From the UHGV virus genome UHGV-1456322: a stretch of DNA of 43,927 nucleotides, one strand, 5' to 3'. Below the pieces are notes generated by a model, which saw only the letters and a list, made by a program, of their open reading frames with translations, ran no database searches and had not been told where the DNA came from. Source of the stretch: a virus. The position numbers and the translations under genes were made by a program. This document shows, piece after piece, positions 4,842-43,927 of the stretch (the stretch's first letter is position 1; each line of letters begins with the position of its first letter).

Positions 4842-4860
4842 TCCTACTCCTGTAACATTA
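4840..4860 (-). promoter_or_regulatory. candidate phage RNAP promoter (minus-strand TAATGTTACAGGAGTAGGA)
   Basis: Exact 16-mer CCTACTCCTGTAACAT (plus strand) shared with 26339-26354 and 36777-36792; located just downstream of RNAP gene. Confidence 0.45.
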
Positions 4861-20589: not shown

Positions 20590-22265
20590 TAAGCTGCCTC
20601 CTCTGCTTCTTCTTCATCTTCATCGTTTCCCAGGTACTTCTCTCCCAAGCAATCAGCTGCATGCTCAGTGAGAATTAACCCGTGCACTGGGTGTTCTTCT
20701 GCGTGTTCAATAAGCACTTGCCGGTCCTGTGCAAACACCAGTTCCTCTTGGTCGTGCACTACACCCTCTACTTCGCAGCGCTCTATGTCCTCGTCGTATA
20801 CATAGGCGTCGTGGTAATCAGACCAGGTGCAGCTCCAGCGATTATGCAGACCATCACGCCCAACTACGTACACAAAATCCCCTTCTTCTACGCAGCCGTC
20901 GCAGACCATATCACCATCTGCGGTCTCCTGCATGTCATCTACAGAGTAGCGACATTCACAGCAGCAGCACCCAGCAGACTCAGTGCCTACGTAGATGTAT
21001 CCTTCTGAGTCTTGTGCCTCGTACTCATAAGCATCACGGATTACAAAGGCATCATCCCCATACTCATCTACGCCGCACTGGCTGCTATCTAGGTATGGCA
21101 TCAGCACTGCGCCGTTGTATGTTGGGTGCGGTATTCGCGCCAGCATTACCCCTTCGAGACACTCAATGTTTTTGGTGTACCCATGCCCCCGCAGGATTGC
21201 ATCCGCAGCGTCGCCGTAAGCGCGGACGTACTCGTTAGTTTCTGTGTTAACGATTGCCCGTGCCTGCACTTCGAAGTCATCCCCGAACAGTTCCCCGGTG
21301 TACTGGATGAACAGGCGCAGCCCGTTGTCCGGCAGCCCGTGGCTGGTAGTAGCATACACCCGCACCGGGCTATGCTCAAATGAGTATCCACTCATGCAGC
21401 TACCCGGGCCATTCTCGTAGGAGTCGTACCATTCCTGCTCGGTCTTGCACAGGTACGTTGTAGGCTCTACGTTCATAGCCTTGAGGTCTTCGATAGCATC
21501 GCGGAAGTCTACGCCATTGCCGTAGTAGTTAGCGAGCCACTTACCTACGCGCATCTCCACACAACGGTACTCGGTAACTGCGGCGAAGTCCTTGTGCATC
21601 CGCGGCTGCCCCAGCATCACGATAGGCTCACCGTTGCGGAAACCAAAGCCCAATGGCACGGCGAATCTAGATACTATGAATCCGTGCAACTTCATGAGCA
21701 GCGCAGCTAAGTTGCCATCGCGGGCGTGGCGGCCGTAATCGTAGCCAGTGCATAAGCGGCGCTGCTGCTCTTCTGGTGCAAGCATGATGCGCTCAAATAA
21801 CTGCACGGCCTGCTTGTGCACCTTGTAACCTGTGAATTCTTCGACGCAAGCAACTACGCGCTCAACCACTACATCCTCGCCCTCATAGAAGTCGCGGCGG
21901 CGTTCCCAGAACTTGCTGTCTATGGTGATTCGCACCGGTTCAAAGAGTTCGCAGAAAGTTCCGGACCGGTACAGGTCCACCTTTTGCAACGGGCCGAGCG
22001 TCATCGTTGATTCGCGATACTCTGGGTGCAGTGCCCCGCCTATAGTCACCTCTAAGCCTGGAGTGTGCGCACTGACAGTGCGGAGACCCATAAGCACCTG
22101 CAGCGGACCCTCAGTGTGGGGATGGTCCTCCCCTTGCATTTGCAAGTCCTGGAACGGGGTCCAGTAATCACCGCTGGAATACATTGATTCTTTAATCGGC
22201 AGTGCGTTTGCACCTTCCGGTAATACGATTTTCCATTCGATAGGTGCTGTGTTAGTCTCTTGCAT
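20589..22265 (-). CDS. large uncharacterised early protein (~558 aa) with C-terminal Cys cluster and acidic tail
   Basis: Track ORF 20589..22646 trimmed to ATG at 22263-22265 (AGGGG RBS) because the 5-prime extension overlaps the 114-aa gene; contains GCCCCECR ... CDGC and terminal DEDEEEAEEAA. Confidence 0.5.
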   Translation of the reverse strand: MQETNTAPIEWKIVLPEGANALPIKESMYSSGDYWTPFQDLQMQGEDHPHTEGPLQVLMGLRTVSAHTPGLEVTIGGALHPEYRESTMTLGPLQKVDLYRSGTFCELFEPVRITIDSKFWERRRDFYEGEDVVVERVVACVEEFTGYKVHKQAVQLFERIMLAPEEQQRRLCTGYDYGRHARDGNLAALLMKLHGFIVSRFAVPLGFGFRNGEPIVMLGQPRMHKDFAAVTEYRCVEMRVGKWLANYYGNGVDFRDAIEDLKAMNVEPTTYLCKTEQEWYDSYENGPGSCMSGYSFEHSPVRVYATTSHGLPDNGLRLFIQYTGELFGDDFEVQARAIVNTETNEYVRAYGDAADAILRGHGYTKNIECLEGVMLARIPHPTYNGAVLMPYLDSSQCGVDEYGDDAFVIRDAYEYEAQDSEGYIYVGTESAGCCCCECRYSVDDMQETADGDMVCDGCVEEGDFVYVVGRDGLHNRWSCTWSDYHDAYVYDEDIERCEVEGVVHDQEELVFAQDRQVLIEHAEEHPVHGLILTEHAADCLGEKYLGNDEDEEEAEEAA

Positions 22266-24815: not shown

Positions 24816-24847
24816 CTTCACATAGCACCCCATAGGATGCTATAGGC
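24816..24847 (-). promoter_or_regulatory. conserved 32-bp element with 9-bp inverted repeat (copy B)
   Basis: TTCACATAGCACCCCATAGGATGCTATAGGCT; hairpin with one G-U pair when transcribed from the minus strand. Confidence 0.4.
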
Positions 24848-24852
24848 TGTAA

Positions 24853-25299: not shown

Positions 25300-25328
25300 A
25301 CTATAAAAGCGTTTACTGCTATTGTCAA
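25300..25328 (-). promoter_or_regulatory. sigma70-type early promoter (TTGACA - 17 bp - TATAGT)
   Basis: Minus strand: -35 TTGACA (25323-25328), 17-bp spacer, -10 TATAGT (25300-25305); AT-rich upstream region. Confidence 0.55.
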
Positions 25329-25424
25329 TACCTGTTTTTCATATGACTTATCAGGCTGTCTACTTATCCAGTTGACTCTGGAATCTAGAGCTACCCGGTA
25401 GACCGTATCGCTTTCGATGGGATA

Positions 25425-25453
25425 AATATACACCTAGCAGATTTAAAAAAGCA
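25425..25453 (-). promoter_or_regulatory. possible second sigma70 promoter (TTGCTT - 17 bp - TATATT)
   Basis: Minus strand -35 TTGCTT, 17-bp spacer, -10 TATATT; weaker match. Confidence 0.3.
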
Positions 25454-25466
25454 AGCACTTTTTATA

Positions 25467-25509
25467 AAAAAAAAAAAGGTAATACAGCATTTATAGTACT
25501 GTATTACCT
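25467..25509 (-). terminator. rho-independent terminator (10-bp stem, 11-nt loop, T12 tract)
   Basis: Minus strand GGTAATACAG-(loop)-CTGTATTACC followed by 12 T; directly downstream of the 25515-26069 gene. Confidence 0.7.
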
Positions 25510-25514
25510 CAAGT

Positions 25515-26069
25515 TTATGCCTTTAGCCACCCCAACGGCTCCGTGAATAGCAGCCTGTTACACTTATGTGTATTAAGCGTTGCGGGTATCACCTGAATGT
25601 TCCCCGCACAGTGTAAGCCGCACACCTCTTTAGCCTTTAGCGGTAGCATATGGTCAATATGCCACGCTATGCCAGTACACTCCGCCCTCTCGGCTGCTAA
25701 AGCGATAGCCTCCAACATAACAAACTCACCCCACTCGCCATACCATGAGGGTACGGATTGAGTACGCGCAGCACGGTATCGCGCATTGTGGCGAACCTTA
25801 CGCTGTAATTGCTCCTCTGTCATAATGTGCTTAGGTCGGCGTGTCTTACGGTACTCTCTCAAGGCCTCTGCCTTACGTACCTGATAAACCTTATGGTACC
25901 CCCGCATACGCTCCTTAGTAGCTGGGCTGGTACTCCTAATCTTAAAGCACTCGGAGCACTCCCCTGAACTGGTGAGGCGCTTTGCCGTGTGCTGGTACTT
26001 ACAGTGCTTCCCTGTGTAGTAGTATGTACTACCAGTGGCTTTAGCCGTAGCCCGACTAGATGGTAACAT
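25515..26069 (-). CDS. HNH / endonuclease VII-like nuclease (~184 aa)
   Basis: Track ORF 25515..26138 trimmed to ATG with AAGGAG RBS; CSEC zinc motif plus HIDHMLPL ... GLHCAGN ... N His-Me finger pattern. Confidence 0.55.
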   Translation of the reverse strand: MLPSSRATAKATGSTYYYTGKHCKYQHTAKRLTSSGECSECFKIRSTSPATKERMRGYHKVYQVRKAEALREYRKTRRPKHIMTEEQLQRKVRHNARYRAARTQSVPSWYGEWGEFVMLEAIALAAERAECTGIAWHIDHMLPLKAKEVCGLHCAGNIQVIPATLNTHKCNRLLFTEPLGWLKA

Positions 26070-26074
26070 GTATA

Positions 26075-26945
26075 ACTCCTTATATATTATAGGGATAGCC
26101 ACTAGGGATAGCACTGTGCTGACACTGGCTGTAGCCAATACTAGCCACGTCTAGCCAATACTATCTAATACTACATAAAGCAGAACGTAGTGACGTAACG
26201 TAAGTGAAGGAACGTAGTGATGCGGTGACTATGTAGTTATGGCAGCCTACTACGTAGGCACAGGGCCATACTAGTGAGTGCCTAGTAGGGACTAGTAAGG
26301 ACTAGTATTAAGTAGTGTATATAGTGCCCTAAAACCCTCCTACTCCTGTAACATCATTTCATAATAGCTTTCGAATGAAAGTAAGAGCAAAGGGATAGCG
26401 CTGGATAGTGCGGTGTGGTGGATGTGCGCCCTAGTGGGGAGCGCGCAGCGTAGCACATAATTAGCACAATGTAAAGCACTAAGGATAGCCAGTGGATAGC
26501 CTAGTGCACACTCGGGATAGCACCAGGCATACCCTATGGCCCCACTGCGCGGGCACTAGACAGGCACTAGGCAGACCCACTGAGGCGCACAAAATAAGCA
26601 AGGCAGAGCACGCCCCTATGGCCCACAGAGAGCGCACAGAGAGCGCACAGGAAGCGCCCTAGTGAACGCACAGTGATAGCCATAGGGTAGCACTGGCAAT
26701 AGCCTTAGAGCGCAGCACAGGCCCGCTGAGGCGCTCTAGTGCGCACTAGCAGGCCCCACCAGTGCCCCCCCCCCTAAATTGACGCTAGGCACCCCCCTAT
26801 GGGGGCAATTGGGCGCGTTGAGGGTGAGGGAGGGGCTCGCGTGAGTCTAATAAATTTCAGGTCCAGGTATAGACGCGCACCCCAGCAGCACCCCAGCAGT
26901 GCCCCGGGATACCGTAGAGATACCCCAGGGAAGCTCTAGAGCTAC
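26075..26945. repeat. non-coding repeat-rich region, candidate genome terminus / terminal-repeat region
   Basis: About 870 bp without ORFs; many distinct 2-copy tandem short repeats (AGGGATAGCCACT, TAGCCAATACTA, ACGTAGTGA, GGACTAGTA, GGATAGCC x3, CACAGAGAGCG, CACCCCAGCAG), C10 tract, GC palindromes. Confidence 0.5.
26337..26357 (-). promoter_or_regulatory. candidate phage RNAP promoter copy (GATGTTACAGGAGTAGGAGG)
   Basis: Exact 16-mer shared with 4843-4858 and 36777-36792. Confidence 0.4.
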
Positions 26946-28901
26946 TTAGAGATACACCTCCCAGGCTACCTGGGATACGTCCGCTGCGTTACTGCTCCTA
27001 ATCACGAAGCTGTTTAGGTCCGGATTAGGTGTAGGCACATCCTGGTTCTGAGCTACGCCAGTAACCGTCAAGGCCCCAGCACTAGAGGGAAAGGTCAACC
27101 GCGTCAACTTAACCTCAGACACCCACTTGAAGGAGTTAGCTACGCTGCCAAAGTTTCCGCGTACACGGGCGTTGACTGTAGCCTCACCAGCCACCAGGGT
27201 TGCCACTCCACGGATACCCGTGTCATCCAGTAAGTTCATGGACATGCGCGGGGGCGTAGGTTGAACGGCGTAGCCGCTCAGCAATGCCCAGAACAAGCCG
27301 TGACCGGTCATGTCGTTATTGGACATAGATACCAGGGTAGGGTCAATGCCCATAGTCCCGTGGAAGTACACAGCTCTCCCGGTACCGTCGTAGCGCATGC
27401 TCACGCCATCAATCTCCAGGGATGTCTGCGCTGTCTCAGCTACGTCCTTAGTAACGAAGATGTGAGAGCTGGAGTTGCGGGTGTACCGACCACCCTTAAC
27501 ACGGCCCCCGTTGATTCGCACACCATTCTGGCTACCGTGAGCCTCGCAGTCATAAACGTAGCCACCGCCGTACGAGCAGTTAAAGCCAGAGCGTACGTTG
27601 TCATAAGCTAGGCACTCCCTATAGATAGGGAAGGCTACACCGGTGTTGGAGGCGAACCCGTCCATAGCTGCACGGTAAGCTCGACAGTTCAAGTACTCTA
27701 CCCCGTTAGTGCGCGCTTGGAACCCATCGTCAGCACTGTCGTACGAAACGCATCGAACGAACTTCACACGCTTACCAATGTCATGAGTATCAAACCCAGC
27801 TTGGGTTGTGTTGTAGGCTTCGCAGTTAACGCCTAAGAACTCGATAGGCTCTCCCCACTTGTCCCCGTCTGCGGTGCTCTGCCAGTTCAGAGAGATTGCG
27901 TGGCGTACGTCCATGGCGTGGATATCGTGTACTTCCGTGTCCTCTGAGCAGCCGAGCACTTCTACCCCATACCATCCGATGTTGTAGAAGTACGTACCCT
28001 TAACAGTACTATCTACGCAGTTATTGAACTTGATAGCACTACGCCCTTCTATATCAGAAGCCCCGGGGCGTTTGTTGCCAATAATAACCCCGTCCTGGAT
28101 GTGCAAGTCCGCGGCAAAGTTGGCAGAGATACCGATAGTAAAGAACCGGTTCAAATCGTCGTAGCCGAACTCGTTGATGTACGGGGATACTAAGGTTACG
28201 TTCTCCACCATTGTCGGGATACCTACTTCCGCGGCATCAGACAGGTAGTAGTTATAGTGCAGCGCTTTATCCAGCCGAATACTGGTGACGCCACCGGAGG
28301 TGCTAACCCCAACCACTTTCCTAATCTGGGAAATCTTTACACCGTACGTGTTAGGACCACCATCACACAGCTTGTTAGAGCGAAGATACAAGTACGTACC
28401 TTTTACCGCAGACAAAGCCCCGGCAGCCACCGTAATGACTTTGCTGCCCGCCGCGGCATCCGCTGCTAACGGTACGAACACCGAGGGTGCCGAGCCGATA
28501 ATATTAAGCACTTGACGTGCAACCGCAGCATCCGGTAGGATTCTTCCGGTATCGGTAAACTCTAGCGTAGAGTTGCTTTTGATGTTGAGCACACTCGTGG
28601 CCTGCAGGACCGTGTCCACAACCAGGTGCCTATTAGGTGCGCTCATGAACGTTACTATGCCCGCCCAATTGCTGAACCAGGAGCTGTATGCCGGACCCAC
28701 GAATTTACGGAGTAGATACCCACCAGGTACAGCAAACACAGTTCCGTTATCCACTACCGACGCGGCAGTAGTAAAGGTGAAGTCCCCACCGGCGCTGCCC
28801 AGCAGGCTAATCTTGTCCCGTACCTGAAAGTTTGGATATGCTACCATGCTCGCCAAGTCGGAGAATACCCGCTCTGGAGCTACTAATCTAATTAACGCCA
28901 T
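26946..28901 (-). CDS. tailspike protein, probable polysaccharide depolymerase (beta-helix)
   Basis: 651 aa; no T7 gp17-like N-terminal anchor; repetitive Gly/Asn/Val-rich segments typical of right-handed beta-helix tailspikes; last gene before genome-end region. Confidence 0.8.
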   Translation of the reverse strand: MALIRLVAPERVFSDLASMVAYPNFQVRDKISLLGSAGGDFTFTTAASVVDNGTVFAVPGGYLLRKFVGPAYSSWFSNWAGIVTFMSAPNRHLVVDTVLQATSVLNIKSNSTLEFTDTGRILPDAAVARQVLNIIGSAPSVFVPLAADAAAGSKVITVAAGALSAVKGTYLYLRSNKLCDGGPNTYGVKISQIRKVVGVSTSGGVTSIRLDKALHYNYYLSDAAEVGIPTMVENVTLVSPYINEFGYDDLNRFFTIGISANFAADLHIQDGVIIGNKRPGASDIEGRSAIKFNNCVDSTVKGTYFYNIGWYGVEVLGCSEDTEVHDIHAMDVRHAISLNWQSTADGDKWGEPIEFLGVNCEAYNTTQAGFDTHDIGKRVKFVRCVSYDSADDGFQARTNGVEYLNCRAYRAAMDGFASNTGVAFPIYRECLAYDNVRSGFNCSYGGGYVYDCEAHGSQNGVRINGGRVKGGRYTRNSSSHIFVTKDVAETAQTSLEIDGVSMRYDGTGRAVYFHGTMGIDPTLVSMSNNDMTGHGLFWALLSGYAVQPTPPRMSMNLLDDTGIRGVATLVAGEATVNARVRGNFGSVANSFKWVSEVKLTRLTFPSSAGALTVTGVAQNQDVPTPNPDLNSFVIRSSNAADVSQVAWEVYL

Positions 28902-30335: not shown

Positions 30336-30710
30336 TTATTCTGCCGCATCAGTGGCGGCTACGAATGCACTCTGCAGTGCAGTGAACGAATCATCAAACG
30401 CTGTACCGGAGCCCTCACCGAGCGGCATACCTGTACCTGTAGGGGCAACGTAGCCGGTCTTAGAGAGCTGTGACAGCATGCTGAACAGGCGCGCCTGCAG
30501 CGTACCGTCATCCTTAAAGGCTGTACCGGCACGGGTAGCCGTATAGCCCTGGGACTGCATGTACGTGAAGAACGCGTTCAGCTTAGTCAGGGCAGTCGTA
30601 CCTACGAAGCCTACGTTGTAGTCCGGCTGCACCTGCTTCTCCAGGTTCTGGCACGTGCCCACAATGGCGTACTGGACGTCCGCAGTTTTAGCTGCGATGA
30701 TTGATGCCAT
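30336..30710 (-). CDS. hypothetical protein (124 aa)
   Basis: Start overlaps terminase large subunit stop. Confidence 0.45.
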   Translation of the reverse strand: MASIIAAKTADVQYAIVGTCQNLEKQVQPDYNVGFVGTTALTKLNAFFTYMQSQGYTATRAGTAFKDDGTLQARLFSMLSQLSKTGYVAPTGTGMPLGEGSGTAFDDSFTALQSAFVAATDAAE

Positions 30711-32566
30711 TATCTTCTTCCTCTATGTTGTTTACCTCTGCCCCGGTTATGTAGCCGAGCAGCTACACCACGAAAGCCCTTAGACACTTTGCTCTGTGCC
30801 CAATCCAGTGGGTTCTCAATGAAGGCCCGAGCCATCTTCTCAGACTCACGCTCCGCCACCACTTTCTCATCTTCCACCAGATGCCCATTCAGCGTAGCCA
30901 CCATCATGGCGATTGCGTCTGCCCGGTCATCCTTCGCAAGGCTACCGCGGTCGTACGTGATACCGGACAACTGCGCGAACGCAGAGTACAGCCAACGCCT
31001 ATCGCGGGAATATGCCATACAGGTACTGATATCGTCGTGAATAGCACGCTCATGCACTACCAGGCGATGGCGACGAGTAACTGGGCTGATTGTGTCGATG
31101 ATACGACGCTCTTTCTGCGTGCAGTTATTCAGGTCCCTTACACCGATACCGGCGAGACGCCGCTCACGTAATCGGTTCAGGATAAGCATAGACACGGTAC
31201 CGTGCCCCATATTGCTCTCCACCACCATATCCGGGATGTCCAACTCTACACACAGGTCAATCAGTTTATCAATGTTCTCTTCGCTGATACCTCCTTGGAA
31301 TCCGCCTACGGAGAATAGGTGAATGTACGAGTTCGCAGCGCCTCCAGCAGCGTAGGACACTTCGTCCCCACCACAACCAGCCGGGTCCACTACCAGTACC
31401 TTATGCTGGTACGGAAGGTGCATATCCCCGTAGAATGCCGGGAAGTACATCTGCTGGCCCATAATCCCTTCATGCTCGTGCTGGTACAGATACCGGCGGT
31501 CCGCGATGTAGGAGAACGTCTCCGGGGAGGAATCCTGGCTGCCAGAGTAAACCAGCACATCCGATAGCTTGATGCGCGTACGCATTTGGTCGGACAGGGT
31601 GGTGTCGAGCATGTACTGCAGCTGGAAGCCTTCCGGACCAAAGTCCAGCTCCTTCTCAATCAGCGCATCCTCGTCATAGCGCCCGGTGTCCGTGCTCTCG
31701 CCTAGCGTCCCGTCGACTCCGAAGCCGGTGCGTTTATAGCCGCGCTCAATAAGCTCCAGGATATAAGGAGCAAGTGTACTTCCATATCGCTCTTCCATTT
31801 CAACAGACGGAACGCGCCCGGGCCACACGCGGACCTCGAAGCCACGTCCCGGCAGGGTTTTATAGATACTGTCCTTGGTCTGTGGTGTACCCAGGTACAG
31901 CGTATCCCCGTGCGTACAGATAGCCGCGAAGTCTTTAGAAATCATCAGCAGCTGCTCACGCTGGGTTTGCGTTAAACCATTCTTGGTGGTCTCGATATCA
32001 TCCGGAATCAGCAGGTCCGCGCGCTTACCCTGCAGGGATGCAGTGATACCTACACAGGCTACGCTGGCGGATTTCTCCAGCGGCTTAAGGTCACAGTGTA
32101 CGTCATAACCTTCGAATGAAGTACGGTCCCCACGAGTAGGATCAGCCTTCAAATAGCACAGCAGCGGCCATGTCTCAATCATACGAATGATTAAGTTCGC
32201 TACGTCGGACGCCTGCTTCTCTGCACCGGACACAATCAGGATACGGCAGGATTGGTCCTGGATGAGCCTCCAGACGGCGTACAGTGCAGCTAGTGTAGAC
32301 TTAGCCTCACCACGCTGCGCGGCCACCATGCGCTTCCGGGGGCCCTTCTGCATGTACTCTGCAATGTCGGCCTGCATGTCCGTGAGCGTAAAGCCCAGGA
32401 ACCGCATACCGATGTACGCGAATTCCCGGAAGTCGCTTAGTGCCGCGGCCATCATCACCGCGATATCCTCGCGCTCCTCTTTGGGAATACTGCGCGGATT
32501 CGCACTATAACCAGTAAGTTTCTGGTTGAGCATGCGCAGTCTTCGCGCAGTCTTCACCGATACCAT
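30710..32566 (-). CDS. terminase large subunit (T7 gp19-like)
   Basis: 618 aa; ATPase P-loop-like RGEAKST, overall pattern of T7-type DNA maturase B as recalled. Confidence 0.9.
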   Translation of the reverse strand: MVSVKTARRLRMLNQKLTGYSANPRSIPKEEREDIAVMMAAALSDFREFAYIGMRFLGFTLTDMQADIAEYMQKGPRKRMVAAQRGEAKSTLAALYAVWRLIQDQSCRILIVSGAEKQASDVANLIIRMIETWPLLCYLKADPTRGDRTSFEGYDVHCDLKPLEKSASVACVGITASLQGKRADLLIPDDIETTKNGLTQTQREQLLMISKDFAAICTHGDTLYLGTPQTKDSIYKTLPGRGFEVRVWPGRVPSVEMEERYGSTLAPYILELIERGYKRTGFGVDGTLGESTDTGRYDEDALIEKELDFGPEGFQLQYMLDTTLSDQMRTRIKLSDVLVYSGSQDSSPETFSYIADRRYLYQHEHEGIMGQQMYFPAFYGDMHLPYQHKVLVVDPAGCGGDEVSYAAGGAANSYIHLFSVGGFQGGISEENIDKLIDLCVELDIPDMVVESNMGHGTVSMLILNRLRERRLAGIGVRDLNNCTQKERRIIDTISPVTRRHRLVVHERAIHDDISTCMAYSRDRRWLYSAFAQLSGITYDRGSLAKDDRADAIAMMVATLNGHLVEDEKVVAERESEKMARAFIENPLDWAQSKVSKGFRGVAARLHNRGRGKQHRGRR

Positions 32567-32868
32567 TAGACAATTCCTTCTAGTAAGTCCTCAGAGTCTG
32601 AACCACCAACTTTATTTAGAATCTCTTGCTTACGCGCCTCTCTGCGCGCCACTAGCTCGTCATCGAATTCGTCACGAAGGTCCTGCATCTCCTCGGAATC
32701 TGCGTCCGCGGTGATGTCGTTATCCTTCAAGAACTTAGCAATGACCGATTTATCTGCTGCGGGGAGCGGCACCTCATCTTCCTTAGACTGCTTGATTTCT
32801 TCAAGCAAGGCCTCGGTGAACATACGGTGCAGCTCCGAGAGGCGACTGCGTTTAGCTGCCCCTGCCAT
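32566..32868 (-). CDS. terminase small subunit (T7 gp18-like), putative
   Basis: 100 aa acidic helical protein immediately upstream of and overlapping terminase large subunit; AGGAG RBS; assignment by synteny. Confidence 0.55.
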   Translation of the reverse strand: MAGAAKRSRLSELHRMFTEALLEEIKQSKEDEVPLPAADKSVIAKFLKDNDITADADSEEMQDLRDEFDDELVARREARKQEILNKVGGSDSEDLLEGIV

Positions 32869-32880
32869 GCTCTTCTCCTA

Positions 32881-33837
32881 TCATGTAGTCAGCACCCCAC
32901 TGGTGCGTAGCGCTGCCAGCAGTGCGTTAAATTTAGCCACTACATCCCCGGTGCCGGTTGCGTTGGATACAGCTGCAGCCTTGTCCAGATACGCCAAATC
33001 TCCCAAAGAGTCGGCTAAGTAATCTAGGGATGCTTGCGTAGCAAAACCGTCCCCCGCAGTTACATCAACCCCCAGCCGAGCGGCTACAATAGTGCCTGCA
33101 GGTAAGGTCTCTGCAAACAGTATGGTATTATCTACAATATCGAAACTGTAGCCACGAATCTGCCCAACCCCGTTAACCTCTACTACAGCCTTAGTGAAGG
33201 CTAAGCCTGGAGTTACTTCGTCCGTATCAGTGGCCAGGACCGTGCTCCACGGGTAGCTTACCGTCTCTACACCGCTTATAAAGGTGTTCTCCAAGGCGGA
33301 GGTACGGGCACTCAGCGCGTCATCTGCTGCCTTCCGTGTAACGGCTTCGGCCTGTACAGCGGATACCCACCCCGAATGCTCTGCGTCAATGCGCTGTCCT
33401 AGTAAGGCATCGGCGGCATCTACATAAGCCTTAGTGGCGGCATCTTGGGCACTGATTGGGTTGGCTAAGTTGGTTATCCGGTACCCGTTCATGCTGATAG
33501 CGCCATAGAATCCGGGTATAGCCCGGCCCTCCACTAGTTCCTGCGCAAGGTGCAGGAACTGCGTGTTTTGGGAGTCTACGTTTACCTCAATGAACGGAGA
33601 ACCACTGGCGAACTCAATGTACAGATACTCTCGCTCTGTCTTACGGATTAGTAGCACAGTAGTGCTTGCCGCTAAGGCCGAATTGAGCCTGATATTAGTA
33701 GAGCTGGTCCAGGTGTACCCAGTGGTTTCCACACCGTCTAGGTATACATGAATATAGGACTTGTCCAAATATTCAATATCGCACTGGATATCCTGGGTAC
33801 CAGCTGGCTTGATTTGTTCTTGCCAGCTGTATGCCAT
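32881..33837 (-). CDS. tail fiber / tailspike adaptor protein with T7 gp17-like N-terminal domain
   Basis: 318 aa; segment GYRITNLANPISAQDAATKAYVD resembles the T7 gp17 N-terminal region (RRIVNLANAVDDRDAVPFGQL) as recalled; too short for a receptor-binding fiber. Confidence 0.75.
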   Translation of the reverse strand: MAYSWQEQIKPAGTQDIQCDIEYLDKSYIHVYLDGVETTGYTWTSSTNIRLNSALAASTTVLLIRKTEREYLYIEFASGSPFIEVNVDSQNTQFLHLAQELVEGRAIPGFYGAISMNGYRITNLANPISAQDAATKAYVDAADALLGQRIDAEHSGWVSAVQAEAVTRKAADDALSARTSALENTFISGVETVSYPWSTVLATDTDEVTPGLAFTKAVVEVNGVGQIRGYSFDIVDNTILFAETLPAGTIVAARLGVDVTAGDGFATQASLDYLADSLGDLAYLDKAAAVSNATGTGDVVAKFNALLAALRTSGVLTT

Positions 33838-33838
33838 A

Positions 33839-36800
33839 TTAATCGTCTCCGAAGTTATTGATGATAGCTCGCGTAGGTGCGAATTCCTGGATTAACGGCA
33901 CCTGCTTAGTGAAGGTCTTGATATCCATATTACCGGTAGCCAGGTCCTGCACAGCCCCAAGTAGTCCTGTGACGTAACCCATAGATGCCAATGAGTGACG
34001 GGGAGAATCCCCCAGGAAGATATCCTGTAGTAAGGATACACCGCCAATGGCACTCATACCCATCACGGACTCACCGATGAGTTTCTGGGTGTCTACGTCC
34101 CCCCCATCCATACCGTGCTTAGCCATAGTAGCCAGTAGCATCAGCGGGAATTGATACGCCATAATATGGGCTACGCCAATCCACCCAGCGTCGTTCAGCT
34201 CCCTACGCAGAATCTTGTTAGTGGCGGCCAGTGCGAAGCTCTGGTACCCTACAATGACTTTGCCGATAGGGTTGAACTGTGCAAAGTGTGAGGTCTCTCC
34301 AGTACGAACCTGCTGTACCAGGTAGTCCATCATACGCGTCCCTACAACCTCAACTTGCATTTGCAGGTCCGGCTGGAACATGGCGCCCGGGTTGGCTTTG
34401 TTGGCAGCGACGGCACGGTCAGCAATGTCGCGGGTAAGCCCGAAACGCTCCAGACGCTTAAACGCCGCAGCATCACCCTTGAACATCTGGGTAAGCTCAT
34501 CCGCCACAATGCCGGAGTTCAGGTTAACCTGCAGCCGGTGCACCATGCTCATACCGTTGACGTGACGCGCAGCCTGCCCAACGTTCTGGGTTACATTGAA
34601 CCAAGAGGCCTGACGGGTCAGGTCCAGGTTATCGTCGGCGTACGTATTCAACCAGCGGAAGCGCATCTCCTTCTGGATATTACCTCGCAGTACAGTGTCT
34701 AGACGGGTAGCCATATCCGGAGTCTTGATAGCTACGGCACCTTCCTTGAACCAAGGCTGGTCGCGCATACTACGCAGCACTCTAGCCATACCGAACTCCT
34801 TCATAGCCAGGGCAGTGTCAGTCAGCTGATACAGGCCGGAGTTCTTAAGCATGGTGGCGTTAGCCATGTTCCCGGCTGCACGCAGCAAATCCGGAAGCTG
34901 TCCGGCGTCAGCAGGCGCCCCACCCAGGATAAAGTCGATGGTGTCATTGACTGTCTTCTCCCACTTAGCGGAATCCGCCAGTGCGTGCTTAGACTCATCA
35001 ATCATCTTAGCTAGCTGGCCCAGGCCCTGTACGCCTGCATAGGCCATGCCTACACGCCCAGACATACGGTTAGTGTACCCGTGCATAACCTTGGCTACAT
35101 CAGTATCCATCAGGTCCTGCATGCGCATGCTCTTACCGTTCACCAGATACTCTTTGTCCATGTTGAACCGAGTACGCTGACGCAGGTTCCGCGCAGGGGA
35201 CGTGCTACCGGATTCGCGTACGTTACCAGCCAGGAAACTCTGGATTGCAGATTCATCTACACCAGCGCTACGCATAGCCATAACGACCTCGTCGTTACCC
35301 ATGCCGTTAATCAGCTGCTTCCACATCGGGCCGGACTGCCCTGCACGGCCGTTGTAGATACCGTCAACCATCTCCTTTGCAACACGCTGCACTACCTCTG
35401 ACTCCATGCTCGGGTACACGTCCCGCAGGGCGGACCTGAACAGGGCGCGGTAGTCGTCCAGAGTGTTACCCTGCGCAATACCTTGGCGCATCTTGTCGTA
35501 GCTGTACTGACGCGGGAAGTAGTAATCGGATTTAACCAACGCACCATCATCCACCAGACCAGCATTGAGCATATGCTCGTGCCACTTGCCTGCCCAGCCA
35601 GAGCGGCGATAGGCGTCAACCAGTGGGGCAATCTCTACATCCGGTACGGGAACAGCTCGGCCGTTTACATCAGCACTGTAGGCAGCATCCAGGTACTTGC
35701 TCAGGCGGTCTTCCAGTGCAGCCCGCTCAGCGCGGAACTTGCTCCGATGGAAGAAGCGCTCAGAGAAACCTACACCCTTATCCTTCAACGCGCCCAGGAT
35801 AGCGTCTTCCACTACGCTAGCGCTGGCGTCCATCTCCAAAGTGAGGTTGCGCTTGAAGTCCACTACAGACGGGCGACGGCCGCCTACTGCGGACGCATCC
35901 GACACTAGCAGTTTAGCCAAGTCTTCATTGCCTTGAGCGATGTTATCGTACAGGGCAAACATAGTAGAGAGCTTCTTCTTAGCGCCATCCAGCATAGCTT
36001 GGGCACCCTTAGCCTCGTTTAGGGTAGTGCTGCCCGCCAGGTCCTGGAAGGCTTCACTACGGAAGCTCTGGGCTTGGTCTGCATAATCCTTAGCTGTCCA
36101 CTTAACGGCGTCCTCGTACGCATCCAAGACATCTTCCAAGGCAGAACCTTTGGCCTTGATGCCCAGGGCATTCATGATGTACTCGCCCAGTTGGCGGAGC
36201 ATGCTCTTACCGGTTGGGGATTTCGTCCGCGCCAGATGCTCAACCCACTCAGGGCTGTCACCTAAGCCTGCCAGCATCTCGTGCACATTACTAGCGTAAT
36301 ACCGCATACGCGGCGTCAAGGTGGAGTCCGCTGCAATAACAGCGCGCACTTCATCCAGGCGCTTAGCAATCTCTGGGTTACTGTCAACGGCGCGCGCAGT
36401 GGCGGCATGAATCAGTTCGTGCACGGCTACCCTGCTTGTGTCTGCATCCATAGCACGCAGTGCGTCCCCTGCTGTAGTCCATGTGCTGCCATTAGCTCGC
36501 GTAGGTGCGCGTAGAGACACCTCTCCACGCTTAGCTAAATCTTGCTGTGCGTAAGTGTAGCGGCTGCGGTTTGCGGAGCCTGCTACCAGTTTAAAATCAA
36601 TGTCATTTACAGCATCGCCCAGCGTGTCCAGAATAGCCTTCTGGCCTGCTGTTAAGTGTTCGGACTTCTTCAAGAACTGAACTACGTGCTGTGCTTTCAT
36701 GTTCACGGAGGCGGTATTGTTTCTAGATACTTGGATGCTTTCATCCAGTGTCTTAGTAAGGATTTCCTCTCCCTCTCCTACTCCTGTAACATTAGCGTCC

Positions 36801-37537
36801 CTCGCTGTACGAGTTGTAGGCGCTTCTGGGTCGAACATAGGCTCACGCCCAGTACGGGCCTTAGCAGCAGCTTTAGCAGCCCTAGACATATCCCAGAGCT
36901 GGTCCAACCCAGCTACGCCCGCTACCAGTGCAGTTACCGCAGCAGACTGGCCCAGTTGGTCCTGCGCATAGAATGCGGAGCCTACGTCAGCAGCGCGGAT
37001 AGCAGTCCGTGCAGCTAAGCCTGCGCGGCCAGCAATACCAGCGGCAGACATCGGGGCCAGGATGAACGGAGAATCACCCACCAACATACCCGCGAACCCG
37101 GCTACCGTGTTGTCAGCCATTAAGCGGTCACGGTTGCGTTGCTCAAGCATCTGCTGCATGCGGTAGTTGTAATCCTCGACCGATACAGAGTCGTGCAGGT
37201 ACTCAATCTCTTCCTGATTCGGAGCATACAGCTTAGCCCTGGTATCGCTGCTCAGAGTCTGCTTGGCGTTAAAGTTCTGGTCCCGGTCAAATGCCGGGGC
37301 AGAGGCCTTACGGATAGCTGCGGCGATGATGCTGTTACCCATACCAGACGCAAAGCTCTCCCCGGCTGTAGTAGCTGGGGTCTTGGCCTGCGCCAGTAAG
37401 GAGGCACGCTCCAGTGCGTTTAAGCCGTTGTCTCCGGCATCGTTCCAATCTACGCGCTCAGGCGCAGGTTTAAGTGTTGCGCCCTTAGCAGAATCCTTTT
37501 CCTGTGGATTCGGTTCTTGGTTCAGAAACTGAGCCAT
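33839..37537 (-). CDS. internal virion protein (T7 gp16-like, ejectosome component)
   Basis: 1232 aa; largest virion gene, position between gp15-like gene and tail fiber. Confidence 0.8.
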   Translation of the reverse strand: MAQFLNQEPNPQEKDSAKGATLKPAPERVDWNDAGDNGLNALERASLLAQAKTPATTAGESFASGMGNSIIAAAIRKASAPAFDRDQNFNAKQTLSSDTRAKLYAPNQEEIEYLHDSVSVEDYNYRMQQMLEQRNRDRLMADNTVAGFAGMLVGDSPFILAPMSAAGIAGRAGLAARTAIRAADVGSAFYAQDQLGQSAAVTALVAGVAGLDQLWDMSRAAKAAAKARTGREPMFDPEAPTTRTARDANVTGVGEGEEILTKTLDESIQVSRNNTASVNMKAQHVVQFLKKSEHLTAGQKAILDTLGDAVNDIDFKLVAGSANRSRYTYAQQDLAKRGEVSLRAPTRANGSTWTTAGDALRAMDADTSRVAVHELIHAATARAVDSNPEIAKRLDEVRAVIAADSTLTPRMRYYASNVHEMLAGLGDSPEWVEHLARTKSPTGKSMLRQLGEYIMNALGIKAKGSALEDVLDAYEDAVKWTAKDYADQAQSFRSEAFQDLAGSTTLNEAKGAQAMLDGAKKKLSTMFALYDNIAQGNEDLAKLLVSDASAVGGRRPSVVDFKRNLTLEMDASASVVEDAILGALKDKGVGFSERFFHRSKFRAERAALEDRLSKYLDAAYSADVNGRAVPVPDVEIAPLVDAYRRSGWAGKWHEHMLNAGLVDDGALVKSDYYFPRQYSYDKMRQGIAQGNTLDDYRALFRSALRDVYPSMESEVVQRVAKEMVDGIYNGRAGQSGPMWKQLINGMGNDEVVMAMRSAGVDESAIQSFLAGNVRESGSTSPARNLRQRTRFNMDKEYLVNGKSMRMQDLMDTDVAKVMHGYTNRMSGRVGMAYAGVQGLGQLAKMIDESKHALADSAKWEKTVNDTIDFILGGAPADAGQLPDLLRAAGNMANATMLKNSGLYQLTDTALAMKEFGMARVLRSMRDQPWFKEGAVAIKTPDMATRLDTVLRGNIQKEMRFRWLNTYADDNLDLTRQASWFNVTQNVGQAARHVNGMSMVHRLQVNLNSGIVADELTQMFKGDAAAFKRLERFGLTRDIADRAVAANKANPGAMFQPDLQMQVEVVGTRMMDYLVQQVRTGETSHFAQFNPIGKVIVGYQSFALAATNKILRRELNDAGWIGVAHIMAYQFPLMLLATMAKHGMDGGDVDTQKLIGESVMGMSAIGGVSLLQDIFLGDSPRHSLASMGYVTGLLGAVQDLATGNMDIKTFTKQVPLIQEFAPTRAIINNFGDD
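36775..36795 (-). promoter_or_regulatory. candidate phage RNAP promoter copy inside internal virion protein gene
   Basis: Exact 16-mer shared with the two other copies; embedded in-frame in coding sequence (encodes ANVTGVGEG). Confidence 0.35.
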
Positions 37538-37587: not shown

Positions 37588-40272
37588 TTAGTGTGTTGCC
37601 TCAAAGAGCCAATCACGTAGGTTTTGTTCCAGGTACTTCTTACGCTCAGGTTGGGCCTGCTTGTACGCCGGGGTATTCCTCAGCGCTTGCCAAGCCCTAC
37701 CCTGGGCCTCAGATACAGGATACTGATACGCCCCCACCGGGGACTTGGCAGCCTTACGTACCTGTGCCATCGCCTCTGCTACAGGACCAGAGCTACCGTT
37801 ACCACCGTGATAGTTCAGGTCCACCATAACCTTTAACGCCTCATCGGAGGCATTCAAACCCTGCCCCTTGAGTTGCTTCTGCACGTTCGGAACGTACTGC
37901 CTCTCCATAGAGGATTTAAGGATACTGATACCGTCGTCAATGGTTACTTTCTGAGGGACAGGCATGCCCGAGTTAACGTGCAGACCGAAGCCTACGCTAC
38001 CCCTGCCCTTGCCTTCTCGGAACCCTTCGAACTTCATAGTGGTGGCGAGGATGTCACTAAACAGCGATGGTTCCAGCCCCGCCGCGTTACGACCGTTGAC
38101 CTGTACGCTGACAGCGCGCCCATTGTCGTGGTCGTAGAAGGTGGCAGGACGTACGCCCACTTGCTCGCTGCCAATCTTCATATCCCCAGCCAGTGCCGAA
38201 TCGTACGCAGCCTGCGCAGTAGCCTGAACGTCACGGAGGTTCACAGACATAGTCTGGAATGTGCCCTTCTTGTCGAACACGGTTACGGTCATGTTCTGAC
38301 CCGCGTTGCCTGCTGTGGCAGCCTGCACCACTACACGTTCCATGTTGCTGGGGTCGGTGATGGCCTGGACTTGGTTTTGAATCTGCTGTTGCAGAGTAGC
38401 CTTGAACTGCTCCTGGTCGCCCTTGTAGTCGCCCATGATAGACTGCAGAGAGGTACCTGCAGGCAGATACACGTGCCTCGGTGTGCCTGCAATCTCCAGC
38501 TCCAGCTTACGGGCTTGGATGTTGCCTTTGAGCATCGTGTTGATGTCCTCAGCATCCTTACCTACCAGAGATTCCGGATTGCGGCTGTACGTATAACGAT
38601 ACTCCTCTTCCATAGCAGCGCGCGCTTCCTGGCGCTGAGCGTCGGCATCACCGAAGAAACTGAACCAGTTGCTGGTGCCACTAGGGTCCACCATCTTGTC
38701 AGTTGGGTTACTCTGGATATTGCTGTAGCGCCCACTGGCCTTGTTACGTGCCTGGCGGCGCAGGTCATCCAAAATAGTATCGCTGGCATTGCTCGGGTTT
38801 TGTGCGATAGCTTTCTGCACCACCCCCTGCCACTCAGACGGTACCTCAGACAGCAGCGCCATCTTACCTAAGTCCGTACTGGTACTATAAGCCTGTGCCC
38901 ACAAGTTGATGCTGCTGACGTTCTCACGGGAAACCTCACCGTCCTCACCGAGCTGGTCCAGCGTAGTCAGTGTACGTGCCATGTCCGAAGACATACGCTT
39001 GTGCGCCTCGTTGACGGCCCACGCATCCTTGCTGTTGCTTCCGTATGCCAGCAGCTGCAGGTTCCCTTCCGGGGTATCCGGAAAGCTCTTGAGCAGCTCG
39101 CTGCGAGCCTTACCCAGGTCCCCCTTGTACATCCCCGCCAGGGTGGAGCTTGGCATGTTCCCGGTAATCGCTGTGCGCAATGCCTGGGTGTCCGCTGCCT
39201 TCTCACGAATGGTCTGGGCCTTGTTCCAGAACTCCATGCTGGCTCCAGCGCTGAGCACGTCCGATGCCGACAGCTCAATGACACGACTACGAATGCGCGC
39301 CATAGTCTGTTCCTGCTGCTCAGGAGTCTGCCCCTCTAAGGAAGAGATTGCGTCAGAGATTTCAAAACGGGCCTGCGTCTCAATCTGAGCACCAGCGCGC
39401 TTGAACTCCTGATACAGAGCCGCGTTGACGTCCACTGAGTTAACCCCGAGTTCCTTGGTAGCCAGTCCTTGCAGCTGGTTGATTACCAGCGGGTCCTGGG
39501 TCTGCTGCGCTACGCTGACCAGATACTGCTTGGCCCGGTCCAGCTTCTTGCTCTTGTCCAGGTGCTCAGCAGCCAGGATGCTGTCTAAGCCGGTCTTGAT
39601 AGACATCTGCGCGGCGGCACCCTGTCCTGCCTGTAGACGCTGATAGAACTCATCACTGGACGAGCTGAGGCCACGGTCAAGTGCGCGGTCAGCCTGAGCC
39701 ACGGCAAACGCCGCGCGCCCTTTCTGGAAGGCTGTATAGTTCGCCATGCTCGTAGCACGGAGCTGTTGCAGCACGGCCGTAGCAGACTGCTTGGACATCT
39801 CTGGGAGATACATACCGAGCTTGTCCGACATAGATTGGACGTGCTCTTGCTCCTGCTGCTGGAACTCCTCGTCAGTCAGCCCAGCCTCGGCAGCTTTCTT
39901 CGCCCGCGCGATACTATCTGTGCGCCACTTGGCTAGCGAGTCGTACGCTGCGGCGGATACATAACCATCCTGGTAAGCTTCACGTACGAAGATGTTCTGC
40001 TTCTGTACAGCCTCGTCCTTGGAGGCCATCGCGTCCACCGCACCCTGAGCATCCATCGCGCCGCGCACTGTGGCGGCTGCGGCGTTCTCTTTTACTGCCT
40101 CGTCAAAGCCTACGCCGAAGTCCTGCACAAACCCAGACAGGGCGGCTAGACGTTTTGCTTTGGAGGTATCAACAGATACCTCACTCACCGTTGACGGCAA
40201 GCTAACATCGTTGGCCTGCAATTGTACGCCACCGACATTTAGCCCCTGTCTATTGGGTTGAATCACAGGCAT
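37588..40272 (-). CDS. internal virion protein (T7 gp15-like)
   Basis: 894 aa; synteny; C-terminal region may carry an enzymatic domain (unverified). Confidence 0.75.
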   Translation of the reverse strand: MPVIQPNRQGLNVGGVQLQANDVSLPSTVSEVSVDTSKAKRLAALSGFVQDFGVGFDEAVKENAAAATVRGAMDAQGAVDAMASKDEAVQKQNIFVREAYQDGYVSAAAYDSLAKWRTDSIARAKKAAEAGLTDEEFQQQEQEHVQSMSDKLGMYLPEMSKQSATAVLQQLRATSMANYTAFQKGRAAFAVAQADRALDRGLSSSSDEFYQRLQAGQGAAAQMSIKTGLDSILAAEHLDKSKKLDRAKQYLVSVAQQTQDPLVINQLQGLATKELGVNSVDVNAALYQEFKRAGAQIETQARFEISDAISSLEGQTPEQQEQTMARIRSRVIELSASDVLSAGASMEFWNKAQTIREKAADTQALRTAITGNMPSSTLAGMYKGDLGKARSELLKSFPDTPEGNLQLLAYGSNSKDAWAVNEAHKRMSSDMARTLTTLDQLGEDGEVSRENVSSINLWAQAYSTSTDLGKMALLSEVPSEWQGVVQKAIAQNPSNASDTILDDLRRQARNKASGRYSNIQSNPTDKMVDPSGTSNWFSFFGDADAQRQEARAAMEEEYRYTYSRNPESLVGKDAEDINTMLKGNIQARKLELEIAGTPRHVYLPAGTSLQSIMGDYKGDQEQFKATLQQQIQNQVQAITDPSNMERVVVQAATAGNAGQNMTVTVFDKKGTFQTMSVNLRDVQATAQAAYDSALAGDMKIGSEQVGVRPATFYDHDNGRAVSVQVNGRNAAGLEPSLFSDILATTMKFEGFREGKGRGSVGFGLHVNSGMPVPQKVTIDDGISILKSSMERQYVPNVQKQLKGQGLNASDEALKVMVDLNYHGGNGSSGPVAEAMAQVRKAAKSPVGAYQYPVSEAQGRAWQALRNTPAYKQAQPERKKYLEQNLRDWLFEATH

Positions 40273-43854: not shown

Positions 43855-43896
43855 AAAAAAAAAAAAAAAAAGCCCCGGGCACCCGAAGGCACCAGG
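43855..43896 (-). terminator. rho-independent terminator (GC-rich stem-loop plus T17 tract) between capsid and tail modules
   Basis: Minus strand CCTGGTGCCTTCGGGTGCCCGGGGC followed by 17 T; position analogous to the T7 terminator after the capsid gene if the window is circularly joined. Confidence 0.55.
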
Positions 43897-43927
43897 TCCT
43901 AGTATGCCTCACTTGCTTAGAAGAAAA

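Follow-up and report, generated by a model that had tools for sequence, protein, structure and literature searches.

A probable concatemer junction, holding one copy of a short direct terminal repeat, between the tailspike and endonuclease genes of a KP34-like phage

The window, by which we mean the whole 43,927-nucleotide stretch of DNA that was analysed, has all of its long ORFs on the minus strand (ORF list, whole window). DNA searches matched it to approximately 250 phage records, nearly all of them from Klebsiella phages of the genus Drulisvirus, and identified it as a KP34-like genome (Drulisvirus, Autographiviridae, Slopekvirinae) that is presented as the reverse complement of the conventional orientation. 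As the query aligns across the join in relatives when the end of the window is joined to its start, we conclude that the window is a complete genome that has been circularly permuted. A 67-nt extra sequence at the window ends had no match in the phage collection. The genes and signals that surround the locus, or that bear on its interpretation, are listed here with the evidence for each.

4866-7334, minus strand: gene for a single-subunit RNA polymerase (Pfam)
25300-25328, minus strand: host-type early promoter, TTGACA-17 nt-TATAGT (sequence)
25476-25510, minus strand: intrinsic terminator with a long T run, directly 3' of the endonuclease gene (terminator scan and sequence)
25515-26069, minus strand: endonuclease gene, 184 aa (PHROG endonuclease VII family, E = 6.5e-21)
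26946-28901, minus strand: tailspike gene, encoding a K1 capsule lyase, the last late gene (ORF list, Pfam)
30710-32566, minus strand: gene for a T7-type large terminase with a T7 RNase H-like nuclease domain (PF22530, E = 5e-30)
32566-32868, minus strand: gene for a gp18-type small terminase (PF11123, E = 5e-19)

The tailspike includes K1-lyase N-terminal, Rider and C-terminal domains (Pfam), and its stop codon, at 26946, bounds the region of interest. On the other side, the 184-aa endonuclease had no match in a Pfam search; its real start is the ATG at 26069, which has AAGGAG ahead of it, and not the upstream TTG given in the mechanical ORF list. The endonuclease gene is inserted between the leader described below and the early promoters, and the same insertion is found in KpV71, PSK2, KX1 and P1010, while alignment showed that the gene is missing at the equivalent position in KpV41, fHe-Kpn01 and KP34. 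Over a stretch just upstream of the early promoter at 25300-25328 that takes in its -35 box, 58 of 65 positions (89%) match T7 nt 541-605, the segment upstream of the E. coli promoter A2. Both of the T7-type terminase genes, which are the packaging enzymes of phages with T7-like terminal-repeat ends, are encoded.

Between the last late gene and the early region, and bounded by the tailspike and endonuclease genes, is a non-coding gap of 876 nt (26070-26945). The longest ORFs within it are 52 and 56 aa, and the small ORFs in the gap do not keep their position and frame across 13 relatives, with one exception. The exception is an ORF of approximately 41-49 aa (26479→26354), seen in approximately 9 of the 14 sequences, and this recurrence, together with the small CDSs that the records of some relatives annotate here (three to five labelled 'hypothetical protein' under the match), is what speaks for one or more small protein genes hidden in the gap. 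However, the recurring ORF begins with GTG, is not preceded by a ribosome-binding site, extends into the S2 promoter (see below) and falls within a stretch whose conservation is at the DNA level. The remaining ORFs vary in position, frame and length among the relatives, and the fHe-Kpn01 and KpV41 records have no annotation in this gap. Small genes were therefore rejected on the lack of conserved ORFs and we consider their presence very improbable; the small hypothetical proteins placed here by some records are probably not genes. A preliminary description of this DNA, made from its letters, had given approximately 870 bp devoid of coding potential at this site, and that assessment holds.

Searches for other kinds of element returned little. 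An Rfam scan of 25300-27100 at E ≤ 1 gave a single chance-level match, which fell outside the region. Host-promoter and terminator scans of 25400-27200 found neither above the level in shuffled sequences: the only promoter-like site is on the wrong strand, and the only terminator-like site in the gap (26616-26600) is weak and straddles one of the boundaries defined in the next paragraph.

The ends of the Drulisvirus fHe-Kpn01 were previously characterised using PhageTerm, restriction analysis, fragment ligation and Sanger sequencing, and found to be blunt with 222-bp direct repeats (PMC7291057). Both copies of the repeat are annotated in the fHe-Kpn01 record (MN380459) and are identical. Identical repeats were also found at both ends of the records for KpV41 (214 bp), KP34 (216 bp) and KpV71 (246 bp). 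These four relatives, fHe-Kpn01, KP34, KpV41 (KT964103) and KpV71 (KU666550), all of which were deposited as linear, were used to project repeat boundaries onto the window. In three of the four (fHe-Kpn01, KpV41 and KpV71) the repeat starts with CCTCACCCT, which aligns to window position 26829 on the minus strand, and the KX1 record stops at the base equivalent to 26829. As KP34 begins one C earlier, this left boundary is uncertain by 1 nt. The repeat ends with ...G(C/T)GCTC in all four relatives, aligning to 26606, and is followed by T(G/A)CCTTGCTTATTTTG, in place of which fHe-Kpn01 has CGTCTTACCTATTTTG. The segments delimited in this way are listed below.

26830-26945, minus strand: right-end unique spacer of 116 nt, from the tailspike stop to the repeat (aligned to the right ends of KpV41, fHe-Kpn01 and KP34)
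26814-26829, minus strand: predicted left terminus, CCTCACCCTCAACGCG (the first bases of the relatives)
26606-26829, minus strand: predicted direct terminal repeat, 224 bp (projected from the four relatives)

Read along the coding strand, the gap thus consists of the 116 nt spacer (26945→26830), the 224-bp repeat (26829→26606) and a 536-nt leader (26605→26070). The terminal-repeat sequence is present as a single copy in the window. Because the boundaries in the relatives align here, the region can be read as one collapsed copy of the repeat lying between right-end and left-end unique DNA, the arrangement expected of a concatemer junction. The preliminary description had regarded the whole region as probable genome-end sequence. 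The predicted terminal repeat makes up only 224 of the 876 nt, and most of the tandem arrays lie outside it, in the left-end leader.

Across 13 relatives, the sequence is near-invariant around both boundaries of the repeat, and variable in the repeat interior and in most of the arrays. The first near-invariant stretch (26876-26784) takes in an AT-rich box, AAATTTATTAGACTCAC, the cut site, CCTCACCCT and CCCCCATAGGGGG, and the second (26630-26586) covers the right boundary and TGCCTTGCTTATTTTG. Three elements were defined within these stretches.

26841-26857, minus strand: AT-rich box AAATTTATTAGACTCAC, 12-28 nt to the left of the left-end cut (near-invariant in 13 relatives)
26792-26805, minus strand: CCCCCATAGGGGGG element, 25-38 nt from the left end (invariant in the relatives)
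26590-26605, minus strand: TGCCTTGCTTATTTTG motif, directly outside the right repeat boundary (conserved in 13 relatives and unique in the window)

The AT-rich box resembles the AAAWTTCTGAAG box that precedes the left-end motif in T7 as well as in 18 further T7-like contigs. A T7-like promoter in TTATTAGACTCACGCG, also to the left of the repeat, was considered and rejected, as a second convincing copy was not found in the genome and the real KP34 promoter differs.

Two GC-rich palindromes had been pointed out in the region, and both are present, CCCCCCTATGGGGG at 26792-26805 and AGCTCTAGAGCT at 26932-26943. They differ in their conservation: the 12-bp AGCTCTAGAGCT is not retained in relatives and appears incidental. 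A hairpin or cruciform formed by the GC-rich palindrome near the left end was rejected, as the left end, the right boundary and the T7 left end fold no better than shuffled sequences (z-scores of -1.0 and +0.8 for single-strand DNA folding at the two boundaries). Since T3 and phiKMV lack the G-run half of this palindrome, and the stability of the hairpin is unremarkable, we read it as a sequence motif.

The motif has counterparts well beyond Drulisvirus. CCCC(C)RTAG is common to the left ends of T7, T3, gh-1, SP6 and phiKMV, with RTAG at nt 30-37. From nine genomes we derived a left-end signature, which is our own and not an established criterion, made up of a YCYC... terminus and CCCC(C)RTAG approximately 25-35 nt inside it; in the window, counting from the predicted left end, CCTCAC occupies nt 1-6 and CCCCCATAG occupies nt 25-33. 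When viral contigs were scanned with the 14-mer, approximately 28 Drulisvirus junctions were found, along with 18 other contigs in which the motif is preceded, 40-43 nt upstream, by a AAAWTTCTGAAG-like box, the spacing seen in T7. A T7-type large terminase is encoded nearby in 17 of these 18. Outside Drulisvirus the box is 40-43 nt upstream of CCCC(C)RTAG, whereas the Drulisvirus box is approximately 10 nt, or one helical turn, further away. Literature string searches for the exact left-end motifs returned nothing relevant, older work on T7 and T3 packaging being outside their reach.

The preliminary description had also counted at least eight short tandem duplications in the region. Tandem Repeats Finder likewise placed eight arrays here, out of 18 in the window, in a segment that is 2% of the sequence. 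The eight arrays cover 257 nt; 200 dinucleotide-preserving shuffles of the region gave a mean of 0.29 arrays and a maximum of 3, and any other 876-nt stretch of the window contains at most two. Seven of the eight have periods of 10-11 bp. Arrays flank the repeat on both sides, with one to the left (26877-26899), two inside and five to the right. Those that are referred to individually are listed here with the homopolymer; apart from the homopolymer, which was read from the sequence, all were called by Tandem Repeats Finder.

26877-26899, unstranded: 11-bp tandem duplication to the left of the repeat
26765-26774, unstranded: homopolymer inside the repeat, C10 on the plus strand and G10 on the coding strand
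26624-26673, unstranded: 11-bp array on the right side of the repeat
26270-26307, unstranded: leader array downstream of S2, period 10
26183-26220, unstranded: leader array downstream of S2, period 14
26132-26173, unstranded: leader array downstream of S2, period 10

Certain words are strongly over-represented. CTAG occurs 16 times (1.7 expected), ACTAG/CTAGT 16 times (0.7 expected) and CACTAG/CTAGTG nine times (0.3 expected), so that the enrichment of CTAG, CTAGT and CACTAG is 9- to 30-fold. GCTATC is present seven times on the coding strand and not at all on the other. Arrays with periods of 10-12 bp are found in 12 of the 13 relatives, though their units and positions differ. The 11-bp unit at approximately 26884-26893, left of the repeat, has approximately 0% identity in the 13 relatives and is therefore regarded as an insertion in this genome. 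Within the array on the right side of the repeat, the 11-bp unit CTGTGCGCTCT is doubled in tandem at 26629-26650, and variation in the copy number of this array (26624-26673) among relatives accounts for some of the spread in repeat length (214-246 bp). Copy numbers also vary among relatives in the three leader arrays within 26132-26307. Two 11-bp units are unique to this genome, and ACTAGTCCTT units differ in number among KpV41, fHe-Kpn01 and KpV71. This variability in copy number points to the gain and loss of units by replication slippage. It is possible that the arrays bind the small terminase or another protein.

The C10 homopolymer that had been remarked on earlier is present at 26765-26774. 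Related contigs have G-runs at this position that are either uninterrupted and range from G10 to approximately G20 or more, or are interrupted (GGGGG(C/T)GGGG). As the related contigs carry runs of differing length, we regard the homopolymer as a genuine feature that varies in length across the lineage. The precise length given by any single assembly is uncertain, however, and is worth checking.

Homopolymer lengths are error-prone, and the spread from G10 to G20 or more comes from related metagenomic contigs, one of which ends in an inverted copy at the G-run. Taken with the two 11-bp units that are found in this genome alone, this could suggest that a poorly resolved contig junction gave rise, through assembly or sequencing errors, to both the homopolymer and the abundance of repeats. 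Against this, the architecture of the region aligns base for base with that of 13 independent relatives, finished genomes included, arrays of the same period are present in 12 of the 13, and the break in the assembly, at the window ends, is elsewhere in the genome. An artefactual origin thus appears highly unlikely.

To the right of the repeat, the leader contains a sequence recognisable as a promoter for the phage's own RNA polymerase, and two further features upstream of it.

26341-26356, minus strand (read 26356→26341): KP34-type RNA polymerase strong promoter S2, TGATGTTACAGGAGTA (exact match to the KP34 promoter)
26447-26475, minus strand: candidate host promoter within the block of the next entry, reading TTTACA-17 nt-TACGCT, with TGn upstream (by inspection; not called by the consensus scan)
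26418-26525, minus strand: most conserved block in the leader, 108 nt, with phased GCTATCC repeats (conservation profile, 13 relatives)

Lu et al. used 5'-RACE and in vitro transcription to define the 16-nt strong promoter of the KP34 polymerase, T(A/G)ATGTTACAGGAGTA, with S2 at nt 475-490 and S1 at 22197-22212 and 33721-33736 of KP34 (PMC6834552). The one copy of a promoter-like 16-mer that had been noticed in the region proved to be an exact S2, and exact copies of S1, TAATGTTACAGGAGTA, are present at 4860-4845 and 36794-36779. All three copies are on the coding strand, and shuffled sequences predict 0.02 matches. Measured from the predicted left end, S2 occupies nt 474-489 (475-490 in KP34) and the three promoters begin at 474, 21970 and 33963 (475, 22197 and 33721 in KP34), an agreement that provides independent support for the placement of the left end. 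The window thus has the 16-nt sequence, KP34-like promoter positions and, at 4866-7334, the gene for the cognate RNA polymerase. Besides the 108-nt block and the stretches at the two repeat boundaries, 26395-26325 is also near-invariant among the 13 relatives, and corresponds to S2 and its upstream flank. Transcription from the predicted S2 would start near 26340 and proceed towards the endonuclease and early genes.

The G+C content of the leader is 0.48, while that of the terminal repeat is 0.64 and that of the genome 0.54. In T7, an origin can be formed by a phage promoter with AT-rich DNA after it, and phiOL is a secondary origin. A different emphasis is conceivable, in which the leader (26070-26605), with S2 and its AT-richer arrays, is mainly a replication origin or regulatory leader and not a packaging signal. 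A strong phage promoter is indeed followed here by DNA of lower G+C than the genome, the helically phased arrays look iteron-like, the position of S2 parallels that of T7 phiOL at nt 405, and the 108-nt block upstream of S2 is almost invariant. However, conservation within the region is lowest in the arrays downstream of S2, where whole units have been gained or lost among relatives, and the literature gave no mapped origin for any Drulisvirus. On balance we think a mainly origin or regulatory role for the leader rather unlikely, though it complements the interpretation of the gap as a genome-end junction and is compatible with it.

Taken together, the alignment of repeat boundaries from four relatives at 26829 and 26606 supports by homology the earlier proposal of genome-end or concatemer-junction sequence, and each of the features that had been described was found where it had been placed or within a few bases. 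With high confidence, though from sequence comparison, we interpret the gap as the concatemer junction of a KP34-like phage, the linear genome of which has short direct terminal repeats and was assembled into a circle. From the relatives we infer that this phage has physical ends at these boundaries, a doubling of coverage over the repeat, and blunt ends. In the virion, each end of the DNA would have a copy of the repeat and the total length would be approximately 44,151 bp (43,927 + 224), so that the true virion DNA would be approximately 224 bp longer than the assembly. For annotation, the genome should be opened at its left end, window position 26829 on the minus strand.

If maturation follows the T7 model, replication would generate head-to-tail concatemers with one repeat per junction, the encoded T7-type terminase would cut at both boundaries of the repeat, and strand-displacement synthesis would duplicate the repeat, leaving a copy at each end of every packaged genome. 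At the left, the candidate cis signals for cutting comprise the box AAATTTATTAGACTCAC just to the left of the cut, the terminus CCTCAC and, at +25, the CCCCCATAG element; for the right boundary, ...GTGCTC|TGCCTTGCTTATTTTG is proposed. S2 would correspond in position to T7 phiOL and drive transcription rightward, across the endonuclease gene and in the direction of the early genes.

Several of these signals may have a wider role. CCCC(C)RTAG, which is fixed approximately 25-35 nt inside the left end in at least five Autographiviridae subfamilies, may be a maturation signal. The motif at the right boundary (T7-group phages have ATCTGTT, and those of the KP34 and phiKMV groups CCTTGC(Y)T...) may be a pause site for the phage's own polymerase that couples it to cutting by terminase, and the phased 10-12 bp arrays may serve as a loading platform for the small terminase. 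We take ATCTGTT to be the T7 class II pause signal. It was found neither at the right boundary nor elsewhere in the junction, and the only TATCTGTT in the window, at 40171-40178, is at chance level; coupling of polymerase and terminase is thus without direct sequence support here. Pausing at the right edge of the T7 junction has been summarised previously (PMC3276506). As a joint proposal, that CCCC(C)RTAG with its box, the lineage-specific right-boundary motif and the phased arrays together form cis signals for T7-type maturation, of which the literature that was searched gave no description, can be put forward only tentatively.

A junction of this kind is a textbook feature of Drulisvirus that is documented in close relatives, from which this instance departs in details alone. 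Wider interest is confined to the shared left-end motif and the lineage-specific motif at the right boundary. An accurate map of the ends and promoters is useful because Klebsiella phage therapy counts Drulisvirus phages among its candidates and because the KP34 polymerase is under development as a tool for RNA synthesis. Comparison across subfamilies also yields specific sequences, open to mutation, as candidate DNA signals for directing terminal-repeat packaging; outside T7 and T3, such signals are poorly defined.

Among the known systems, fHe-Kpn01, KP34, KpV41 and KpV71 are the closest and share the same genus-level genome. They have the same left terminus, CCTCACCCT, the same right boundary, GCTC|T(G/A)CCTTGCTTATTTTG, the CCCCCATAGGGGG element, an S2-type promoter approximately 475 nt from the left end and the 10-12 bp array period. 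Nevertheless, the junction DNA is only approximately 81-88% identical to that of the listed relatives. The repeat is 224 bp, compared with 214-246 bp in the relatives, with part of the difference due to the doubled CTGTGCGCTCT, and there is an additional 11-bp duplication to the left of it. An uninterrupted G10 is present where KP34, KpV41 and fHe-Kpn01 have GGGGG(C/T)GGGG. The endonuclease gene with its own terminator follows the leader here and in KpV71, but not in KP34, KpV41 or fHe-Kpn01.

The likeness to T7 is mainly one of layout. In the T7 record, phiOL is at 405, the host promoters A1-A3 are at 498-750 and phiOR is located ahead of the right repeat. The order of elements is the same in the window, with a terminal repeat, short-repeat arrays, a phage promoter (at 405 in T7 and 474 here) and host promoters, and T7-type terminase genes are common to both. 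The termini are similar (TCTCAC in T7, CCTCAC here), and an identical 13-mer, CCCCCATAGGGGG, occupies nt 26-38 in T7 and nt 25-37 here. The T7 repeat is 160 bp and is followed by CCTAAAG-type arrays of period 13, whereas the units here have CTAGT and GCTATC cores and a period of 10-12 bp, and are unrelated to those of T7. The resemblance to the short-repeat arrays of T7 that had been suggested earlier thus applies to the layout of the elements and does not extend to the repeat units, among which there is no CCTAAAG-type word. Unlike in T7, arrays are also found inside the repeat. The spacer that separates the repeat from the tailspike gene contains no strong-promoter sequence of the S1/S2 type, so that phiOR has no obvious counterpart in this phage.

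Directly after the repeat, T7 and T3 have ATCTGTT and gh-1 has TATCTGT, while Drulisvirus phages have TGCCTTGCTTATTTTG. In phiKMV (NC_005045), similarity at the DNA level is detectable in short motifs only and the repeat, at 414 bp, is nearly twice as long as the one described here; as in T3, the left-end motif is without the G-run half of the palindrome. The gene order is related, in that the DNA-metabolism block ends with the RNA polymerase gene, and CCCCCGTAGG is found at nt 26-35 from the left end. At its right boundary, the phiKMV repeat is followed by CCTTGCCTCT, which contains CCTTGC, as does the corresponding sequence in this phage.

In diverse uncultured T7-like contigs, a AAAWTTCTGAAG-like box lies 40-43 nt upstream of CCCCCATAGGGGGT (loci L022, L031, L048, L049, L052, L060, L068, L081, L092, L102, L120, L124, L128 and L132, among others), and in several of these contigs the pair follows the terminase gene at a distance of 1-3 kb. 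The large terminases of the contigs that carry the pair are approximately 30% identical to that of the window phage. The same arrangement surrounds the left-end cut in T7. The pair has the appearance of a junction signature that is conserved widely.

Within the terminal repeat, comparison of the positions homologous to the G-run at 26765-26774 (loci L026, L046, L051, L066 and L087) revealed lengths from G10 to at least G20 across related contigs, and the L051 contig terminates in an inverted left-end copy just past the run. This homopolymer is hypervariable and prone to assembly errors.

Beyond the non-coding leader, the following features, all on the minus strand, were identified:
25515-26069, minus strand: endonuclease VII/HNH-type gene, between the leader and the early promoters
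25476-25510, minus strand: strong terminator of the endonuclease gene, with a long T run
25300-25376, minus strand: early host-type promoter (TTGACA-17 nt-TATAGT) with its upstream flank
24817-24848, minus strand: exact copy of the motif AGCCTATAGCATCCTATGGGGTGCTATGTGAA, with an inverted repeat

The endonuclease gene occupies this site in KpV71, PSK2, KX1 and P1010 and is absent from it in KP34, KpV41 and fHe-Kpn01, a distribution that fits a mobile (homing-type) insertion. The only promoter evident for the gene is the upstream phage promoter S2, a copy of the KP34 RNA polymerase strong promoter. The early promoter and its flank match nt 541-605 of T7, directly upstream of Escherichia coli promoter A2, with 89% identity (58/65), whereas the early promoters in the left-end leaders of KpV41 and fHe-Kpn01 are unlike that of the window. 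This difference suggests that early-promoter modules have been swapped in mosaic fashion among distant T7-like phages. The motif AGCCTATAGCATCCTATGGGGTGCTATGTGAA was put forward by Eriksson et al. (2015) as a phage promoter of KP34-like phages, but the experimentally defined promoters of KP34 do not resemble it.

An apparent insertion of 64 nt, with a duplication of 13 nt (CCTGGTGCCTTCG), contains the window's own ends (43855-43927 joined to 1-60). The insertion is in the loop of a conserved terminator described for KP34-like phages and is adjoined by a homopolymer of 17 bases (A17, plus strand). Approximately 88 nt at the join are missing from relatives, and a search of the phage collection matched the extra sequence to nothing. 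Either a genuine micro-insertion or an artefact of assembly circularisation could account for it.

The third strong-promoter copy (36779-36794, minus strand) lies within a 1232-aa ORF (33839-37537) and is not intergenic, as at the equivalent KP34 position. Read as its complement, the KP34 promoter core is CCTACTCCTG, on the plus strand at 26339-26348 and also at 4843 and 36777. For the single-strand nicks of phiKMV-like phages, the reported consensus is CGACNNNNNCCTACTCCGG, with the core CCTACTCCGG (PMC4482731). CCTACTCCTG agrees with this core at 9/10 bases. In this supergroup, the polymerase promoter may be related in sequence to the nick consensus.
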